A stretch of DNA of 25,110 bases from Flavobacteriaceae bacterium (GTDB lineage Bacteria > Bacteroidota > Bacteroidia > Flavobacteriales > Flavobacteriaceae), in NCBI GenBank assembly GCA_030836435.1, contig JAURPW010000046.1, forward strand, positions 1 to 25,110, written 5' to 3'. Each line of letters begins with the position of its first letter. Within the stretch, counting starts at the first letter, position 1. The notes below the pieces were generated by a model. It ran no database searches and had not been told where the DNA came from. It saw nothing but the letters and a program-made list of their open reading frames with translations. Positions 2 to 25,110 of the stretch are shown one piece after another. The position numbers were made by a program, and so were the translations under genes.

Positions 2-400
2 ACCACACCGATCAGGCCGATCGACGTTGCAGAGGCCGTTTGCGCCATAAGAAGCTCAAAGCTGCCCGATCCGAAAATCATTGGAAATGCGGGAAGTTTC
101 TTTAAGACTCCGGTGGTGTCTGCCGAGAAGGCCAAACCGCTTCGCTCTATAGACAGTGAAACACCCCTATACGCTCAATCCGACGGAAGCTTTAAGGTAG
201 CCGCTGGCTGGCTTATTGATCGACTAAAGCTAAAGGGGTTTAAAAGGGGTAAAGCCGCCGTACACGACAAACAAGCGCTTGTGCTGGTCAATACCGGAGG
301 GGCAAGCGGCAAAGAAATTTTTGATCTAAGTGCTCACATCAAGCAACAAGTAGCCGAAACTTATGGCATTGAACTTGAAGAAGAGGTCACTATTTACTAG
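2..400 (+). CDS. murB: UDP-N-acetylenolpyruvoylglucosamine reductase MurB, 3' part (5' end lies outside the window)
   Basis: Frame 2 is open from base 2, upstream of the ORF-track start at 113. It reads TTPIRPIDVAEAVCAIRSSKLPDPKIIGNAGSFFKTP...AAGWLID...GAAVHDKQALVLVN...IELEEEV, the MurB C-terminal motifs (IRxSKLPDP, GNAGSFFK, HxKQALVLVN). Confidence 0.95.
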   Translation, partial: TTPIRPIDVAEAVCAIRSSKLPDPKIIGNAGSFFKTPVVSAEKAKPLRSIDSETPLYAQSDGSFKVAAGWLIDRLKLKGFKRGKAAVHDKQALVLVNTGGASGKEIFDLSAHIKQQVAETYGIELEEEVTIY

Positions 401-421
401 CAGAGTTCTTACCTTTACACT

Positions 422-619
422 ATGAAATTAGTTTTACTCACTGCAGGCTTACTTTTACTTTCTTTTGCAGGTATAGCGATAAAGCTTTGGGCTAAAAAAG
501 ACGGAAAATTTTCAGGAACCTGCGCCAGTCAGAGCCCTTTTCTGAACAAAGACGGAGAAAGCTGCAGCTACTGCGGAAAGACCGCAGATGAAATGTGCAA
601 AAAAGAGGCAGTTAATTAG
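422..619 (+). CDS. Small single-TM membrane protein with four cysteines (G-T-C34 ... C48xxC51 ... C59); NqrM-like architecture
   Basis: 65-aa ORF with an N-terminal hydrophobic helix, a basic KKDGK stretch and four Cys. It fills the gap between murB and the sigma factor. The NqrM relationship is inference. Confidence 0.8.
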   Translation: MKLVLLTAGLLLLSFAGIAIKLWAKKDGKFSGTCASQSPFLNKDGESCSYCGKTADEMCKKEAVN

Positions 620-624
620 CGATT

Positions 625-1176
625 TTGAATCCAGAGTCTAACGCATCACTTATCGATCGTGCCTTAAGCGGTGACCAATCCGCCTTCAACACCCTTCTCA
701 ACAATCACTGGCAAGAGGTTTACTTCTTCTTGCTCAAGCGCACCGCAAACGAATTAGACGCAGAAGATATCGCCATTCAAACCTTCTCGCGCGCTTTTGA
801 GAAGTTGTCTAGCTACGACTCTGCCTTTCAATTCAACACCTGGCTCATATCTATTTCTAAGAACTTGCACATCGATCTGATTAGGGCAAGAAATCGATCG
901 CGCAGCGAAGAGCGACTAAACGCCGATACCGAACTGGTACTTGACGAAAGCCCTAACCACGAAGACCAGCTTATACTTGAGCAAAGTCAACACCAGCTAT
1001 TGGATTTCATTCACAAGCTCAACCCGCGCTACCAAAAACTGATCGAGCTCTTTTACTTCGAGTCGAATTCTATTCGAGAGATCTCAATCTTACTCGAAGA
1101 GAGCGAAAACAACGTTAAGGTGACTCTTCTTAGGGCAAGGCGAAGTCTCGCTGAAATTCTAAGGAATAACCCTTAA
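625..1176 (+). CDS. ECF-type RNA polymerase sigma-70 factor
   Basis: Region 2 motifs DAEDIAIQTFSRAF and FNTWLISISKNLHID; region 4.2 SIREISILLEESENNVKVTLLRARRSL; 183 aa; TTG start. Confidence 0.93.
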   Translation: MNPESNASLIDRALSGDQSAFNTLLNNHWQEVYFFLLKRTANELDAEDIAIQTFSRAFEKLSSYDSAFQFNTWLISISKNLHIDLIRARNRSRSEERLNADTELVLDESPNHEDQLILEQSQHQLLDFIHKLNPRYQKLIELFYFESNSIREISILLEESENNVKVTLLRARRSLAEILRNNP

Positions 1177-1195: not shown

Positions 1196-2074
1196 ATGGA
1201 ATCTGCCGTAGAAAACAAGACCGAAACCACTCGCGTAGCTAAACCCAAATGGATCAGGGTAACCCTGCCGACAGGGCAGAAATACAAGCAACTTAGATCG
1301 TTGGTAGACACCTATAACCTGAACACCATTTGCACCTCTGGAAGTTGTCCAAATATGGGCGAATGTTGGGGCGAAGGAACGGCGACTTTTATGATCTTAG
1401 GCAACATCTGTACGCGCTCTTGCGGATTTTGTGGGGTGCAAACCGGCAGGCCTGAAAAAGTAGATTACGCCGAGCCTGAAAAAGTGGCCCGTTCTATCAA
1501 GGTGATGGGCATCAAGCATGCCGTTCTCACCTCGGTAGACCGAGATGATCTAAAAGATATGGGGTCTATTCTGTGGGCTGAGACCATTCGTGCGGTCAGA
1601 CGCATGAATCCTCATACCACTATGGAAACCCTGATTCCAGATTTTCAAGGCATAACGGAGCACCTAGACCGCATTATAGATGCAGCACCCGAGGTCATCT
1701 CGCACAATATAGAGACCGTAAAAAGGCTTACCAGATCCGTTCGCATTCAAGCGAAATACGAAAGAAGTATGGAGGTTTTGGCCTACCTGAAATCGGCTGG
1801 GGCGAGACGCACCAAATCGGGTATAATGCTTGGGTTGGGTGAGACCGAAGAAGAGGTTTTTCAGACGCTCAGAGACTTGAGAGCCGTTGATGTCGATGTG
1901 GTTACTATCGGACAGTACTTGCAGCCTTCAAAAAAACACCTACCCGTCTCTTCGTTTATCACTCCAGAACAGTTCAAGGTGTATGAGACGTTCGGATTAG
2001 AACTCGGATTCAGACACGTAGAAAGCGGCCCTTTAGTGCGCTCTTCTTACAAAGCACACAAGCACATCGATTAA
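1196..2074 (+). CDS. lipA: Lipoyl synthase
   Basis: Auxiliary cluster motif CTSGSCPNMGEC, radical SAM motif CTRSCGFC, and HNIET, TKSGIMLGLGET, GQYLQP and C-terminal RSSY motifs. Confidence 0.98.
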   Translation: MESAVENKTETTRVAKPKWIRVTLPTGQKYKQLRSLVDTYNLNTICTSGSCPNMGECWGEGTATFMILGNICTRSCGFCGVQTGRPEKVDYAEPEKVARSIKVMGIKHAVLTSVDRDDLKDMGSILWAETIRAVRRMNPHTTMETLIPDFQGITEHLDRIIDAAPEVISHNIETVKRLTRSVRIQAKYERSMEVLAYLKSAGARRTKSGIMLGLGETEEEVFQTLRDLRAVDVDVVTIGQYLQPSKKHLPVSSFITPEQFKVYETFGLELGFRHVESGPLVRSSYKAHKHID

Positions 2075-18656: not shown

Positions 18657-19439
18657 ATGCTAAACAAACTCTTTAGTTACAGTCTGGCCTTTATTCCCAG
18701 ACCCCTACTCATAAGGATTAGCCTTTTTGCTCAACCGCTGTTGCGCCTCTTATTTAAGGGAGACCGCTACACAGACCCCATCGACAAGCGCTCTTTTCGC
18801 AAATTGTTACCCTATGGCTACCGCAGCCAGCGCCAAAATGTGCTCTCCCCCTCTACCCTTTCGTTGGAGCGCCATCGCTTGCTCTGGCTCTATCTCGAAA
18901 GGCACACTTCGTTTTTGAACAGCAACCCAGAAAAAAGACTGAGTGTGCTGCACGTGGCACCTGAACAGTGTTTTTATGGGCGCTTCAATAAACTTTCGCA
19001 TCTAGAGGTCATCGGCTTTGATCAAAATTCGCCACTGGCCGAAGTCAAAGGCGATTTAAGGGCTCTTCCGTTCGAAGATGAACGATTTGATGTGGTGTTC
19101 TGCAATCACGTTTTAGAGCATATCGCCGACGATCTCGCGGCCATGAAAGAACTCTACCGTGTACTCAAGCCGGGGGGGTGGGGAATCGTTCAGGTACCCA
19201 TGAAAGCCGACTTGCTTGAGACCTATGAAGACCCCAGTATTACAACGGCTGCCGAGCGCGAAAAACAGTTCGGTCAATACGACCATGTGCGTTGGTACGG
19301 GCGTGAAGATTACTTCACCCGCCTAGAACAAGCCGGATTTGTGACAGAAGCACTGCGGGTTTCTGAACTTTTCACAGCAGATGAAATCGAGCGATTTGTT
19401 CTCGATATAGACGAAATTCTTCCGATTATTCGACGTTAG
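18657..19439 (+). CDS. Class I SAM-dependent methyltransferase with a degenerate N-terminal zinc-ribbon region
   Basis: SLERHR, VLHVAPE, LPFEDERFDVVFCNHVLEHIADD, RVLKPGG and FGQYDHVR motifs. Confidence 0.88.
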   Translation: MLNKLFSYSLAFIPRPLLIRISLFAQPLLRLLFKGDRYTDPIDKRSFRKLLPYGYRSQRQNVLSPSTLSLERHRLLWLYLERHTSFLNSNPEKRLSVLHVAPEQCFYGRFNKLSHLEVIGFDQNSPLAEVKGDLRALPFEDERFDVVFCNHVLEHIADDLAAMKELYRVLKPGGWGIVQVPMKADLLETYEDPSITTAAEREKQFGQYDHVRWYGREDYFTRLEQAGFVTEALRVSELFTADEIERFVLDIDEILPIIRR

Positions 19440-20436
19440 CTTCGTCAAAATGACCCTGAGAAATTCGCTGAGTTTGATTATACTCATCGACAAAGATGAT
19501 GAAGGCCGAGAAACCAGGACGCTCTTTTAAAAAAGCCTTGCTCATCTCTAGTGGCATAGCCATCAAAGCAGTCGCATAGGCATCAGCCTCTGCACAGGTT
19601 GGCGCTATAACGCTAGCCGATAGCACATTGGTCGGTTCGGCCATTCCACTTAGCGGGTTAATGGTATGCACGTATTTGCTTTGGGTGTCAGGGTCGATGC
19701 GATACTTTCGGTAGTTACCCGAAGTTGCCATGGCCTGATTAGAGAGCCCAATAATCTTGGTTAATGAATTTGATTCTGGAGACAGCGGGTCGTCAATTCC
19801 GATTCGCCAAGGCGAGCCTTTTTGTTTGTTCTCACCTTTGGCAACAATCTCTCCGCCCAGTTCTACCAAATAATTCGAGGCGCCCAGCTCTTGCAATACC
19901 ATTGACATTCTGTCGAGCGTGTATCCCTTGGCCACGGCATTAAAATCAAATTGAATACCGGGCTGACTCATTTGAATCTTGCGATTAACCAGAGACACCT
20001 TATCGAAACCTACAAACTGAAGCAAGCTATCTAGATGCGTTGGCCGTTCTGAACTCGGCCCTTGAGGGCCAAAGCCCCAAGCATTCACAAGCACCCCAAC
20101 AGTAGGATCAAAGTAGCCTTTGGATTCGCTATAGACACGCTCCGAAAGCCAGAACACGTCCTCAAACAGTTCATCGACCACCACCGTAGTGTCTCCCGCA
20201 TTTATTCGCGATATACTTGAATCATCTTGGTAAGTAGACATAGAGGCATTTACCTTAACAAACAACGAATCAAAGGCCTTTCGCAGCGCTAAGTCACCGC
20301 CCTTTAGCTCGTTCTCGAAAACCGAAACGGCATAGGTGGTTCCGAGTGCGTTCCCCTGAACGATTTTCAGCTCGTTTGAAGGCTTGCAACTTGCAACAAC
20401 GAATAGGGCAGATAGTAGAAGTAAAAACGGTCTCAT
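19426..20436 (-). CDS. apbE: FAD:protein FMN transferase ApbE (lipoprotein)
   Basis: Start placed at ATG 20436 (MRPFLLLLSALFVVASC, lipobox). MSTY, FDPTVG, NAVAKGY, ATSGNY, HTINP and ADAYATA motifs; sits downstream of the nqr genes. Confidence 0.95.
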   Translation of the reverse strand: MRPFLLLLSALFVVASCKPSNELKIVQGNALGTTYAVSVFENELKGGDLALRKAFDSLFVKVNASMSTYQDDSSISRINAGDTTVVVDELFEDVFWLSERVYSESKGYFDPTVGVLVNAWGFGPQGPSSERPTHLDSLLQFVGFDKVSLVNRKIQMSQPGIQFDFNAVAKGYTLDRMSMVLQELGASNYLVELGGEIVAKGENKQKGSPWRIGIDDPLSPESNSLTKIIGLSNQAMATSGNYRKYRIDPDTQSKYVHTINPLSGMAEPTNVLSASVIAPTCAEADAYATALMAMPLEMSKAFLKERPGFSAFIIFVDEYNQTQRISQGHFDEANVE

Positions 20437-20446
20437 AATAAGCGAG

Positions 20447-20818
20447 TTAGAGTAATTCGTCAACCAAAAAGAGTCCCTTGAAATCAATATCGCAGTCTTG
20501 ACCCTTTTCGACCGGGAGGCTTTTATCGATGGCATTGTAAACGCCAACCCCGGCAAAGTAGGTGGCTGCTTCAAAGGCCACTGCGTGATCTTTCACCTTG
20601 GTAAGAAGAGCGCGGTCAACGGCCATTGGATCTTCAGGAAAGCGCGAAGCCCGAACGATAATAAAGTGCAGCTCTTTATCTTTTAGACAGACAAACTGCG
20701 GATCTTTCTTCAATTCAGAATTAACCCCCAAGAACTCAAAGCCCGCTTGCTCGAGCTGTTTTCCTACCACGTTCATGGCCATGCGATGTAAATCGTGATC
20801 CGAAATCATACTGGTCAA
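20447..20818 (-). CDS. Conserved hypothetical protein between nqrF and apbE; YraN/PD-(D/E)xK-like fold lacking catalytic residues (inferred)
   Basis: 123-aa ORF (TTG 20818; ATG 20809 is an alternative start) filling the nqrF-apbE gap. It contains no Fe-S, FAD or NAD motifs. Confidence 0.75.
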   Translation of the reverse strand: MTSMISDHDLHRMAMNVVGKQLEQAGFEFLGVNSELKKDPQFVCLKDKELHFIIVRASRFPEDPMAVDRALLTKVKDHAVAFEAATYFAGVGVYNAIDKSLPVEKGQDCDIDFKGLFLVDELL

Positions 20819-20854: not shown

Positions 20855-22162
20855 TTACCCTCCGAAATCGTCGAAGCGAATATTTTCATCGGGTATTCCG
20901 AAGTCTTCACCCATTTTCTGAACGGCCTGGTTCATGAGTGGAGGACCACAGAAATACAGCTCGATGTCTTCAGGAGTCTCGTGATGCTTTAGGTACTGAT
21001 CAATGACACAGTTGTGAATAAATCCGACAAAACCATCGCCTTCAGTGTCATTGATGTCTTTCTTAACCTTCCAGTTGTCTTCTTCTAGGGGCTCCGAAAG
21101 GGCCATGTAGAATTTGAAATTTGGAAACTCGGCCTCTAACTTCTTGAAGTGATCGATGTAGAAGAGCTCGCGCTTAGAGCGCCCACCGTACCAATAGGTC
21201 ACTTTGCGGTTAGTTCTAAGGGTCTTGAACAAATGATAAAGGTGAGAGCGCATTGGAGCCATTCCGGCACCACCACCCACATAAAGCATCTCGGCCTCTG
21301 ATTCATTGATGAAGAATTCGCCGAACGGGCCTGAAATGGTCACCGGGTCACCTGCCTTTAGACTGAAAATATAAGAAGATGCTACCCCAGGATTAACGTC
21401 TGCCCAATCGTTCTTTTTGCGATCAAAAGGGGGAGTCGCAATACGCACATTGAGCATGATCTCTCTTCCTTCTGCCGGAAAAGAGGCCATAGAGTAGGCA
21501 CGCTCAACGAGCTCTGGATTTTTCATAACTAATGGCCAAAGCTTAAACTTATCCCACTCGTTTTGAAACTTCTTCGGATCGTCGTGTTCTTCGGGGTGGG
21601 CCGTAATATCCATGTCGGCATACTTCACCTCGCAAGCGGGAATCTCAATTTGAATATAGCCTCCGGCCTTGTAGTTCATGTCTTCAGGAATCTCCACCAC
21701 AAACTCTTTGATGAAAGAGGCCACATTGTAGTTGCGCACAACCTTTCCTTGCCACTTCTTGATACCGAAGACCTCCTCTGGGATCTCGATCTCCATGTCT
21801 TGCTTAACCTTTACTTGACAAGCTAGGCGCGCCCCTGAGAGCAGCTCTTTCTTCGAAAAGTGTGGAGTCTCCGTAGGTAAAGCCTCACCGCCTCCTGAGA
21901 GCACGTGACACTCGCACTGAATGCAGGTTCCACCGCCGCCACAGGCAGAAGGCAAAAACACCTTTTGATTTCCTAGAGTTGAAAGCAAAGAGCTACCAGA
22001 AGGCACCTCAATTTTTCGCTCGCCATTAATAGTAATGGTTACCGGGCCCGAGGGCGAAAGCTTTTCTTTGGTGTAAAGCAGTAACCCCACTAGAAGCAGA
22101 GTGAGCACCAAAAAGGCAGCAACGGTAATGAGCATTGTACTTCCGATAGCAGCTAAAACCAT
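20855..22162 (-). CDS. nqrF: Na+-translocating NADH:quinone reductase subunit F
   Basis: N-terminal TM anchor, [2Fe-2S] motif SACGGGGTCIQC...RLACQ, FAD motif RAYSMA, GGGAGMAPMRSH, CGPP and C-terminal FDDFGG. Confidence 0.98.
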   Translation of the reverse strand: MVLAAIGSTMLITVAAFLVLTLLLVGLLLYTKEKLSPSGPVTITINGERKIEVPSGSSLLSTLGNQKVFLPSACGGGGTCIQCECHVLSGGGEALPTETPHFSKKELLSGARLACQVKVKQDMEIEIPEEVFGIKKWQGKVVRNYNVASFIKEFVVEIPEDMNYKAGGYIQIEIPACEVKYADMDITAHPEEHDDPKKFQNEWDKFKLWPLVMKNPELVERAYSMASFPAEGREIMLNVRIATPPFDRKKNDWADVNPGVASSYIFSLKAGDPVTISGPFGEFFINESEAEMLYVGGGAGMAPMRSHLYHLFKTLRTNRKVTYWYGGRSKRELFYIDHFKKLEAEFPNFKFYMALSEPLEEDNWKVKKDINDTEGDGFVGFIHNCVIDQYLKHHETPEDIELYFCGPPLMNQAVQKMGEDFGIPDENIRFDDFGG

Positions 22163-22185: not shown

Positions 22186-22926
22186 TTAATTAATACCCGC
22201 GATTACCTCTTCTTGCTGGTCTTGCGGTTCTTCTAACTCTTTAGTTTCTTCAGGTGATTCTTCGGTCTTCACCACGGCCTCTTCGACGGCGGCAGGCGGC
22301 TCATTATCTCCTGTTAACATTCCGCCAAAGCTCTGAAAGCCTATACCCATTAATCCGGTGATAATAAAAGTGATTCCAAGGCCTCTCAATGGAGCCGGAA
22401 CGGCCGAATAGCGAATCTTCTCGCGAATGGCAGCAATAGCCAATATGGCCAGAAACCACCCAATGCCCGAACTCAAACCGTAGTTAAAGGCCAGATCTAG
22501 CGAAGGTATTTCTCGGGCCTGCATGAATAACGAACCTCCCAAAATGGCGCAGTTCACAGCAATTAGCGGCAAGAAAATACCCAAAGAGTTATACAGTGAG
22601 GGAGAAAATTTCTCCACCACGATCTCAACAAGCTGCACCATAGTAGCAATGGTGGCGATGAATAGAATGAACGATAAGAAACTCAAGTCGTAATCGGCAT
22701 ATTCGGCACCTAACCAGGTGAGGGCTCCGGGCTGAAGAATGTACTGATCCAATAGCCAGTTAAGGGGAACGGTCACGGCAAGCACGAAGATTACGGCTGC
22801 ACCCAGTCCGACAGCGGTGGCCACCTTTTTCGAAACGGCTAAATAGGAACACATTCCTAAAAAGACCGCAAAAACCATGTTGTCAATAAAAATAGACTTG
22901 AAAAATAATTCTAAATGCTCTAACAT
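22186..22926 (-). CDS. nqrE: Na+-NQR subunit E with an acidic C-terminal extension
   Basis: Start placed at ATG 22926. FLGMCSYLAVS and LPLIAVNCAILG (Fe-ligand Cys), QLVEI, VPAPLRGLGITFI. Confidence 0.97.
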   Translation of the reverse strand: MLEHLELFFKSIFIDNMVFAVFLGMCSYLAVSKKVATAVGLGAAVIFVLAVTVPLNWLLDQYILQPGALTWLGAEYADYDLSFLSFILFIATIATMVQLVEIVVEKFSPSLYNSLGIFLPLIAVNCAILGGSLFMQAREIPSLDLAFNYGLSSGIGWFLAILAIAAIREKIRYSAVPAPLRGLGITFIITGLMGIGFQSFGGMLTGDNEPPAAVEEAVVKTEESPEETKELEEPQDQQEEVIAGIN

Positions 22927-22936
22927 CTCTATACGA

Positions 22937-23584
22937 TTAAGCTTCTTCAATTAATGCCGGATTCTTCGCGCGCTGAACCCAAATTAAAACCCCAACTACA
23001 ATTAGCGCGGCTGGAGGTATGATCATAAATCCGTTGTTTTCATAGCCAAAGGCATAAAGCCCTGTTTTGGCAATCGGATCTCCGAGTACGGGAATTCCGA
23101 AGAGTGTACCCGAACCCAATAACTCTCTGAAAAACCCAACGATTACCAAGATAACCCCGTATCCTAAGGCGTTTCCAATACCGTCTAGAAATGATCTCCA
23201 CGGCCCGTTACCCAAGGCAAAAGCCTCAAAGCGACCCATGATGATACAGTTGGTAATGATAAGGCCTACAAAGACAGATAGCGTTTTACTCAGCTCATAA
23301 GCAAAGGCCTTTAAGGTCTGGTCGACCACAATAACCAAGGTAGCCACTACGATGAGCTGAACAATGATGCGGATCTTTGATGGAATCACATTTCGCATAA
23401 GCGAAATCACCACGTTTCCAACACCAAGAACGAATAAGACCGAAACGGCCATTACCACAGAGGCTTTGAGTTCAGCTGTGATAGCCAGTGCAGAACAAAT
23501 CCCGAGAACCTGAATAGTGATCGGGTTATTATCTGCTAAGGGATCAAGGATTAACTTGGTTTCTTTTTTTGATAGTAAGGGCAT
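22937..23584 (-). CDS. nqrD: Na+-NQR subunit D
   Basis: NNPITIQVLGICSALA, RIIVQL, VFVGLIITNCIIMGRFEAFA and DGIGNALGY motifs. Confidence 0.98.
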   Translation of the reverse strand: MPLLSKKETKLILDPLADNNPITIQVLGICSALAITAELKASVVMAVSVLFVLGVGNVVISLMRNVIPSKIRIIVQLIVVATLVIVVDQTLKAFAYELSKTLSVFVGLIITNCIIMGRFEAFALGNGPWRSFLDGIGNALGYGVILVIVGFFRELLGSGTLFGIPVLGDPIAKTGLYAFGYENNGFMIIPPAALIVVGVLIWVQRAKNPALIEEA

Positions 23585-23594
23585 GACTTACGAT

Positions 23595-24347
23595 TTAATT
23601 AACAGCTCGAACAGATTCGAAATAAGGTTCATATAGACGGATGCTCTCTTTGATCATGGCACTTACCCCGTTTCCGGTAATGGTGGCACCTGCTAGTGCA
23701 TCTACCTGCGCATCCAATTTATCGGAATTTAATGGATCGTTATTTCCTTTAACCACTTCGATAGCGCGGTATCCTGAATCAGAAATAATAGACTCTCCGA
23801 TAAAATCATCCATGAAGAAGCGCATCTTGATGTTGGCTCCCAAACCAGGGGTCTCGCCTTTGTGATCGAAATAAACACCTGTTATGGTGAGCGATTCGTC
23901 TACAGACATATAGCCCCAGATGGCGTCCCAAAGGCCCTTTCCGTACATCGGAAAAATGTAGTAGGTGCTTCCGTCACGTTCTCCGACAAAGAGTGGCAAC
24001 TTGCCGGGCTTGCCTGATTTGATCAGATCGATCTCTTTCTTGAGGTCGATCATGTAGGCATTTTCTGCAGCAACAGCCTTACCTTCTTGGATAATGTATT
24101 GACCCTTAATGAGCTCATCAAAGCGCTGGCCAACTTCAGTGGTCGGTATAAAATTCACGCTTGAATCGTCTTCGTTGTTGTGAACCCCCATAGCGTACAG
24201 AATGTTCTGCTGCTTTTCAAAGCGTTGATTTTCAGTAATTCGGTCTTTCAAACCAGTGGCTAAGTAGGCCAAAATCGAACCCACTACAGAAACCATCACT
24301 ACTGCGAATACTACGGTGTACGTATTTTTATCGGTATTTATTGCCAT
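23595..24347 (-). CDS. nqrC: Na+-NQR subunit C
   Basis: N-terminal TM helix, QQNIL, GKGLWDAIWGY, HKGETPGLGA and FMN site VDALAGATIT. Confidence 0.97.
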   Translation of the reverse strand: MAINTDKNTYTVVFAVVMVSVVGSILAYLATGLKDRITENQRFEKQQNILYAMGVHNNEDDSSVNFIPTTEVGQRFDELIKGQYIIQEGKAVAAENAYMIDLKKEIDLIKSGKPGKLPLFVGERDGSTYYIFPMYGKGLWDAIWGYMSVDESLTITGVYFDHKGETPGLGANIKMRFFMDDFIGESIISDSGYRAIEVVKGNNDPLNSDKLDAQVDALAGATITGNGVSAMIKESIRLYEPYFESVRAVN

Positions 24348-24364: not shown

Positions 24365-25110
24365 TTAAACGGTTTGTGTTTCAAGGGTTGCGGGCTCATT
24401 CGCCGGATAAATCTTTGCATGCTGAGCGCGCTTTAATCTGCGCTTCACATTGGCCTGAACCACATAATGGTCGATGGTAGGTGCAAAAACATTCATCAAT
24501 AAGATGGCCAAGAAAACACCTTCTGGATAACCGGGATTAAACACACGGATCATCACCGATATAAAACCGATCAGAAAACCGTATATCCATTTACCGCGGT
24601 TGGTTTGCGAGCTAGTTACAGGATCGGTGGCCATATAGACAATTCCGAAGGCCAAGCCGCCTACGATAAGGTGTTTCCAAAAATCAAAGGCCATAAGGCT
24701 GTAGAACTTCGAATAGGATTGTATCCAGCCGAAATCAATCACTGCGTTAAACATAAGGCCCATAGCCAGAGCGCCCAACACGGCACTCAACATAATGCGC
24801 CAGCTGGCGATTTTGGTGAAAACCAAAAATAATCCGCCCAATAAAATGAGAAAGGTAGAAGTCTCACCGACCGATCCCGGAATAAACCCGTAAAACATCT
24901 CGCTCAACGAGTAGGTCATTTCATCGGTTTTGTTTTGAGCCAAATACCCCAGAATAGTCTCACCCGAAATAGCATCTGTGGTGTTAGCCTTGGTCACCCC
25001 GTCAACCGCCCCGTGAACCCAAACCTTGTCGCCACTCATCCATGTCGGATAAGCAAAGAACAAAAAGGCTCTAATGGTAAGTGCTGGGTTCAATATGTTC
25101 ATTCCGGTTC
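24365..25110 (-). CDS. nqrB: Na+-NQR subunit B, 3' part (runs off the window end)
   Basis: Frame is open to the edge: TGMNILNPAL..RAFLFFAYP, PGSVGETS, IASWRI, MATDPV, GYPEG and NVFAPTIDHYV motifs. Confidence 0.97.
   Translation of the reverse strand, partial: TGMNILNPALTIRAFLFFAYPTWMSGDKVWVHGAVDGVTKANTTDAISGETILGYLAQNKTDEMTYSLSEMFYGFIPGSVGETSTFLILLGGLFLVFTKIASWRIMLSAVLGALAMGLMFNAVIDFGWIQSYSKFYSLMAFDFWKHLIVGGLAFGIVYMATDPVTSSQTNRGKWIYGFLIGFISVMIRVFNPGYPEGVFLAILLMNVFAPTIDHYVVQANVKRRLKRAQHAKIYPANEPATLETQTV

Follow-up and report, generated by a model that had tools for sequence, protein, structure and literature searches.

The 65-aa protein encoded near the start of the window, by which we mean the whole 25,110-nt stretch of flavobacterial DNA analysed here, is probably the NqrM of Bacteroidota, that is, a remote homologue of the PF04400 family that most likely serves as a maturation factor of Na+-NQR through delivery of iron or Fe-S to NqrD/E. 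The protein and its relatives are homologous to canonical NqrM, occur strictly together with nqr genes and, in other lineages, are encoded next to apbE and the nqr operon; metal delivery and the requirement for assembly would hold by analogy with work on the NqrM of Vibrio and Klebsiella. In two sources (PMC12174285, PMC6209661) NqrM is described, after Kostyrko et al. 2016, as a Na+-NQR maturation factor of proteobacteria. A literature search retrieved no paper tying NqrM or DUF539 to a Bacteroidota protein, although Kostyrko et al. 2016 might comment on Bacteroidota. Judged by its sequences, the family would represent a diverged NqrM subfamily lying outside the current models. The initial annotation had proposed a divergent flavobacterial NqrM equivalent unlinked from nqr, a proposal upheld by the profile homology, the co-occurrence and the orthologues found after apbE.

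The gene at positions 422-619 and its product

The ORF is a real gene, because it is related to more than 2200 protein clusters and because all of the 20 base differences between it and the nearest genome, the Flavobacteriaceae MAG L131, were synonymous; among the differences from remoter relatives there was a third-position excess, as expected for a coding gene. The listed relatives appear in public records mostly as 'membrane or secreted protein', and their genera include Flavobacterium, Flagellimonas, Aquimarina and Maribacter. The following features were located:

422-619, forward strand: nqrM-like gene, ATG start, stop included, for a 65-aa single-pass membrane protein with a four-Cys tail
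425-493, forward strand: N-terminal transmembrane helix, residues 2-24 (AlphaFold2 helix, pLDDT 95)
515-523, forward strand: G32-T33-C34, counterpart of the G-S-C33 of canonical NqrM (by conservation; placed on GSC by hhalign)
563-577, forward strand: C48-S-Y-C51-G52, a CxxCG knuckle (by conservation; aligned to the C-x2-C-G-G of the second NqrM subtype)
596-598, forward strand: C59, the fourth Cys, kept in at least 90% of the members

The length of 65 residues, the single N-terminal transmembrane helix, the basic stretch, G-T-C34 and the three further cysteines (C48, C51 and C59) had all been read from the letters at the outset, and both the translation and the AlphaFold2 model agreed with that reading. 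The model, built on an alignment of 54 sequences, consists of the helix and, at a pLDDT of about 70, a tail in coil conformation. Directly after the hydrophobic N-terminal segment comes the basic stretch (K21-K29, AKKDGK); by the positive-inside rule, the tail is predicted to be cytoplasmic and the N-terminus to lie outside. A Foldseek comparison of the model with the PDB gave no match, and the tail has no regular secondary structure. In the alignment of 27 close relatives (A1) the segment G-T-C-A-S-Q-S-P-F-L-N and the CxxCG knuckle were invariant; in the alignment of 54 diverse relatives (A3) C34, C48 and C51 were invariant, and G32 and G52 nearly so.

Surroundings of the gene and the nqr locus of the window

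The source assembly is a 1.1-Mb MAG, 65% complete. Apart from the small gene, the window contains these relevant features:

2-400, forward strand: 3' end of murB, conserved upstream neighbour (synteny)
625-1176, forward strand: ECF-type sigma-70 factor gene, 5 nt downstream of the small ORF, conserved neighbour in Flavobacteriaceae
1196-2074, forward strand: lipA (lipoyl synthase), conserved downstream neighbour (synteny)
18657-19439, convergent with apbE: methyltransferase gene
19426-20574, reverse strand: apbE, encoding the flavin transferase that also serves NQR maturation; position of the start codon uncertain, and overlap with the 123-aa ORF
20447-20818, reverse strand: 123-aa ORF between nqrF and apbE
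20855-22162, reverse strand: nqrF
22186-22950, reverse strand: nqrE, with both Cys aligned to the V. cholerae NqrE Cys kept (presumed cluster ligands)
22937-23584, reverse strand: nqrD, with both Cys aligned to the V. cholerae NqrD Cys kept (presumed cluster ligands)
23595-24347, reverse strand: nqrC
24365-25110, reverse strand: nqrB, partial, cut by the window end

The remaining subunit gene, nqrA, was found on another contig of the same assembly (G000:C146). The distance from the small ORF to apbE is 18.8 kb, matching the figure of about 19 kb given initially, and the accompanying observation that the nqr locus has no small four-Cys ORF after apbE was also correct: the convergent methyltransferase gene overlaps the 3' end of apbE (19426) by 14 nt, and there is therefore no room for one. 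The 123-aa ORF matched no Pfam or NCBIfam model, and tblastn against 24 further nqr loci of Bacteroidota, in which nqrF and apbE were mostly directly adjacent, did not find it; it appears to be an insertion into the nqr operon that is specific to this lineage. A scan for sigma-70 promoters and terminators was uninformative, the consensus being different from Bacteroidota promoters.

Homology to canonical NqrM

Single-sequence and family searches did not recover the relationship. Pfam and NCBIfam scans of the 65-aa protein returned only sub-threshold zinc-ribbon or C1 noise, and PF04400 (gathering score 22 bits) matched neither the protein nor its 54 relatives at E up to 10. A six-frame PF04400 search of its own genome (65% complete) gave nothing at the place of the ORF and one chance match elsewhere (E 0.32), leaving no canonical nqrM found in that assembly, whose missing part may yet hold a second factor; none of the 401 Bacteroidota genomes sampled had a PF04400 match over the cut-off.

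Canonical sequences were collected with the last 59 residues of NqrF from V. cholerae (taken from a PDB alignment) as query, which led to 80 metagenome loci, and 30 of the small ORFs following nqrF-apbE in those loci made up the canonical NqrM alignment (A2). All of these exceeded the PF04400 cut-off, with E down to 4e-24, serving as positive control. G31 and C33 were invariant among them and S32 was present in at least 90%, one sequence (L096) having GTC. Two subtypes were distinguished, the Vibrio type GSCGG-x9-C-x-C-x3-C, and a second type GSCGG-x9-C-x2-C-G-G-x4-C (n = 8/30). In the proteobacterial loci L060 (4183-4383), L062 (4180-4398), L071 (4180-4383) and L075 (4183-4383), nqrM begins within a few bases of the nqrF 3' end, with apbE either behind it or missing, so that the two maturation genes do not have a fixed order.

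The profile similarity that the initial annotation had called for was found. Comparison of A3 (n = 54) with A2 (n = 30) by hhalign gave a probability of 96.7% and an E of 3.5e-10 over 65 aligned columns, in a register that aligned the helices, the G-[ST]-C motif (GTC on GSC) and the later cysteines. The real score was 53.5, against a maximum of 29.5 in 30 column shuffles in which the helix and tail segments were kept. The best partner was the CxxCGG subtype alone (96.9%, E 1.8e-10, 67 columns, 22% identity). With the Cys tails alone the alignment was not significant (score 11.7 versus 8.5 +/- 2.2 for shuffles), and much of the profile signal therefore comes from the helix and the GxC junction.

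The similarity was selective in both directions. When the A3 HMM was run with filters off against all 2778 ORFs of at least 40 aa from the 80 proteobacterial nqrF loci, NqrM ORFs made up 64 of the top 65 matches, the best at an E of 2e-10; a single decoy came in at 0.0019, and none of the many multi-helix Nqr subunits gave a score. Conversely, the canonical NqrM HMM run against 1245 ORFs from 18 Bacteroidota nqr loci ranked small post-apbE ORFs in all of the top nine places. An NqrM cluster was the first family other than its own that the ESM Atlas listed (score 0.88, 194 of 256 features), and the predicted architectures correspond, with helix 2-24 plus coil here and helix 2-26 plus coil in canonical NqrM. 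By these results the 65-aa protein is a remote homologue of NqrM and not merely an analogue.

Comparison with related and unrelated small proteins

The Vibrio-type NqrM (DUF539, PF04400) and the family described here share a size of about 65-85 aa, an N-terminal helix of equal length, a basic stretch, G-[ST]-C at residue 33/34 and four cysteines in a coil tail; both are found only in NQR-bearing genomes and, in several lineages, are encoded after apbE at the end of the nqr operon. They differ in that the flavobacterial motif reads GTCAS(Q/N)xP instead of GSCGG, the 65-aa protein is without the C-terminal amphipathic helix, the match to PF04400 falls below threshold, and the gene is unlinked from nqr in Flavobacteriaceae. 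The cysteine spacing had been noted from the beginning as unlike that of NqrM, which holds for the Vibrio type (C-x13-C-x2-C-x7-C here versus C-x11-C-x-C-x3-C) but not for the CxxCGG subtype (C-x11-C-x2-C-G-G-x4-C), which is a close match: it has the same C-x2-C-G knuckle and a last Cys 6-7 residues later, whereas it carries GSCGG, passes PF04400 and has a loop between the first and second Cys that is two residues shorter.

A further form was found in Ignavibacteria/Melioribacteraceae, in all four of the genomes examined (L113, 6531-6731; L114, 6649-6861; L117, 7034-7240; L118, 6285-6503; all on the reverse strand). These ORFs lie directly after apbE on the nqr strand, are labelled 'hypothetical protein' in public records and resemble the flavobacterial protein in being unannotated and in having a single helix and a four-Cys tail, whereas their motif is SGCCGGG(N/H)C...C, with a CC doublet, and they do not match the profile of the present family at E up to 1. 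PF04400 misses them at E up to 0.05, and they are the best matches of the canonical NqrM HMM among the Bacteroidota loci.

Relatives with a single cysteine, in which the helix is followed by GKFPNxH(V/I)GxN...GIxC, were also detected (L120, 1517-1717; L121, 1549-1761; L122, 1450-1752; all on the forward strand). Three of the four cysteines are lost in them; among the 401 genomes they occur only in those with nqrA, and they were not beside nqr where this was checked.

Two other groups of small, single-pass proteins with a Cys-rich tail and a link to metal handling were considered, the FeoB-associated Cys-rich proteins (PF12669) and CcoS/FixS (PF03597). They differ from the present family in giving only weak matches, in 3 and 5 of the 54 members respectively (best E 0.12 and 0.048), and neither feoB nor ccoS or fixS was seen beside a family member in the loci examined. 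Several long proteins among the representative matches (P0146, P0158, P0214, P0242 and P0248) were treated as spurious repeat proteins (DUF11, PD40, LRR); in P0146, the one that was aligned, no Cys was aligned, and repeats sum the scores.

Proposed role in Na+-NQR maturation

From its anchor in the inner membrane, with the N-terminus outside, the protein would extend its Cys tail into the cytoplasm; there C34, C48, C51 and C59 would hold iron or a small Fe-S unit, to be passed during assembly of the complex to the Cys4 site between NqrD and NqrE. The presumed client site is present, as NqrD and NqrE of the window have kept the cysteines of their V. cholerae counterparts; we take these cysteines to be the ligands of the intramembrane iron-sulfur centre. 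The C33 of G-S-C, equivalent to C34 here, is reportedly essential in V. harveyi NqrM, as Kostyrko et al. 2016 are said to have found. NqrM is not known to be a subunit of the purified NQR.

The protein might be tied to NQR without being a donor of iron or Fe-S, acting instead as a zinc-stabilised assembly chaperone or as a loosely bound extra subunit on NqrD/E. We regard this as unlikely, though as the best-placed of the alternatives: the same co-occurrence and synteny data are compatible with it, the CxxCG knuckle is typical of zinc ribbons and weak matches to Pfam zinc ribbons were obtained in 10 of the 54 members, and the one-Cys relatives in some nqrA-bearing genomes suggest that the full set of cysteines is not always needed. 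Against it stand the invariance of C34, C48 and C51 and the homology to NqrM, which PMC12174285 and PMC6209661 treat as a maturation factor.

Gene position across genomes and the neighbouring sigma factor

In 11 genomes from six GTDB families, nqrABCDEF and apbE are directly followed by the small gene, at a distance of 75-200 bp from apbE, and one further Flavobacteriales MAG has the same layout with a gap of 60 bp. Flavobacterium piscis, a Cryomorphaceae MAG and Runella are among the genomes with this arrangement. In the Cryomorphaceae genome the small gene is on the operon strand, which gives the canonical nqrA-F-apbE-nqrM layout; in the other ten of the 11 genomes it is convergent with apbE.

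In Flavobacteriaceae, the small gene is followed on the same strand by the sigma gene in 79 of 80 named loci, usually as murB-small-sigma-lipA, and in 10 of 11 unnamed loci. Given the 79/80 figure, separation from nqr is the rule in this family and not a peculiarity of the genome studied here. Four loci (L005, L006, L008 and L011) have a gene of about 1.1 kb between the small and sigma genes, taken as a glycosyltransferase, and L129, from a genome without the small gene, has a 379-aa ORF (1679-2818) in the corresponding place, which we take to be a GT2-type glycosyltransferase. The flavobacterial murB-small-sigma-lipA block was also seen in L133 (CAXPJI010000016.1), a contig whose label, 'MAG: Euzebya sp.', names an actinobacterium. 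Its small protein is 83% identical to that of the window, and the contig is probably flavobacterial and misbinned.

Metatranscriptome contigs from four libraries and three studies (runs X15, X16, X17 and X20; window positions 337-1023) run across the whole small ORF, into murB on one side and into the sigma gene on the other. This fits one transcript, although contigs are no proof that the region is transcribed, or transcribed as one unit. Co-transcription of the small gene with the sigma gene is probable.

This linkage raises the question of a membrane-anchored regulator, anti-sigma-like and sensing redox state or metal, that acts on the downstream ECF sigma factor and has an indirect link to nqr. 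The same-strand sigma gene at nearly all Flavobacteriaceae loci and the RNA-library contigs that bridge the junction in the four runs speak for it, and we nevertheless consider it highly improbable, for outside Flavobacteriaceae the small gene sits beside apbE-nqr with no sigma gene, nqr-less Flavobacterium genomes retain the sigma gene without the small one, and in several genomes the glycosyltransferase gene separates the two. Zinc-binding anti-sigma factors have an N-terminal cytoplasmic anti-sigma domain with HxxxCxxC, and any transmembrane helix is C-terminal to it. The 65-aa protein, in contrast, has no His, no HxxxCxxC motif and no Pfam anti-sigma match, and its helix is N-terminal rather than C-terminal to a sigma-binding domain.

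A weaker form of the link, in which an NqrM-type maturation factor has a second role, its Cys tail reporting iron, Fe-S or redox state to the co-transcribed sigma factor within the fixed murB-nqrM-ECF sigma-lipA block, is a speculative idea to which we give little credence. If true, assembly of NQR would be linked both to a stress regulon and to the product of the adjacent lipA, a lipoyl synthase that consumes Fe-S.

Co-occurrence with Na+-NQR

The distribution of the family was scored in 401 Bacteroidota genomes, at least 90% complete except for the window's own, with profile A1 at E up to 0.001, and nqrA was scored by TIGR01936 over its cut-off. By these measures nqrA was present in 99 of the 401 genomes; in one further genome nqrA was split in two. 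The counts were as follows:

Family present (A1): 70 genomes with nqrA, 0 without
Family absent (A1): 29 genomes with nqrA, 302 without

The co-occurrence with nqr expected for an NqrM was thus observed, no nqrA-less genome (0/302) having the family. With the wider profile A3, the family was found in 75 genomes, all of which (75/75) carry nqrA. The agreement extends to mixed taxa: in Flavobacterium (genus g2) nqrA was present in 3 of 15 genomes and the small-gene family in the same three, and in family f30 the 26 of 61 genomes with nqrA are identical with those that have the small gene. Five nqr-less Flavobacterium genomes lack the small gene yet have kept lipA, the sigma gene and either one or two copies of apbE, and the family therefore tracks NQR, and not ApbE or the flavobacterial neighbours.

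The nqrA-bearing genomes without a member in the sample of 401 number 24 and comprise 10 Ignavibacteria (family f31) and 14 genomes of family f23. In the latter, including the loci L115, L116 and L119 (genomes G085, G020 and G205), nothing NqrM-like was found with three profiles; these genomes are 2-3 Mb in size, have an RnfC-like gene and lack apbE after nqrF. A weak A3 match in G020 was rejected as spurious, its frame overlapping a 183-aa ORF.

Least probable of all, in our estimation, is an unrelated small metal-binding membrane protein whose association with nqr reflects shared habitat (marine, sodium-rich) or ancestry: NQR-bearing flavobacteria are mostly marine, and the Fisher test for family and nqrA (p 4e-55) is descriptive only and overstates the association in its raw form, related genomes not being independent, but a place next to apbE is shared by at least six families and comes in two orientations, the profile similarity is specific to NqrM, and the concordance is perfect inside mixed genera and families.

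Implications

Read as the NqrM of Bacteroidota, the small gene would fill the NqrM gap for Flavobacteriales, Cytophagales (Runella) and further Bacteroidota families, in a sample in which a quarter of the 401 genomes carry Na+-NQR. Thousands of entries now named 'membrane or secreted protein' would gain a function that can be tested, and the gene to co-express with apbE for production of a flavobacterial NQR in a foreign host would be named. NqrM itself would then be a wider superfamily, with at least three Cys patterns, that the current models miss.
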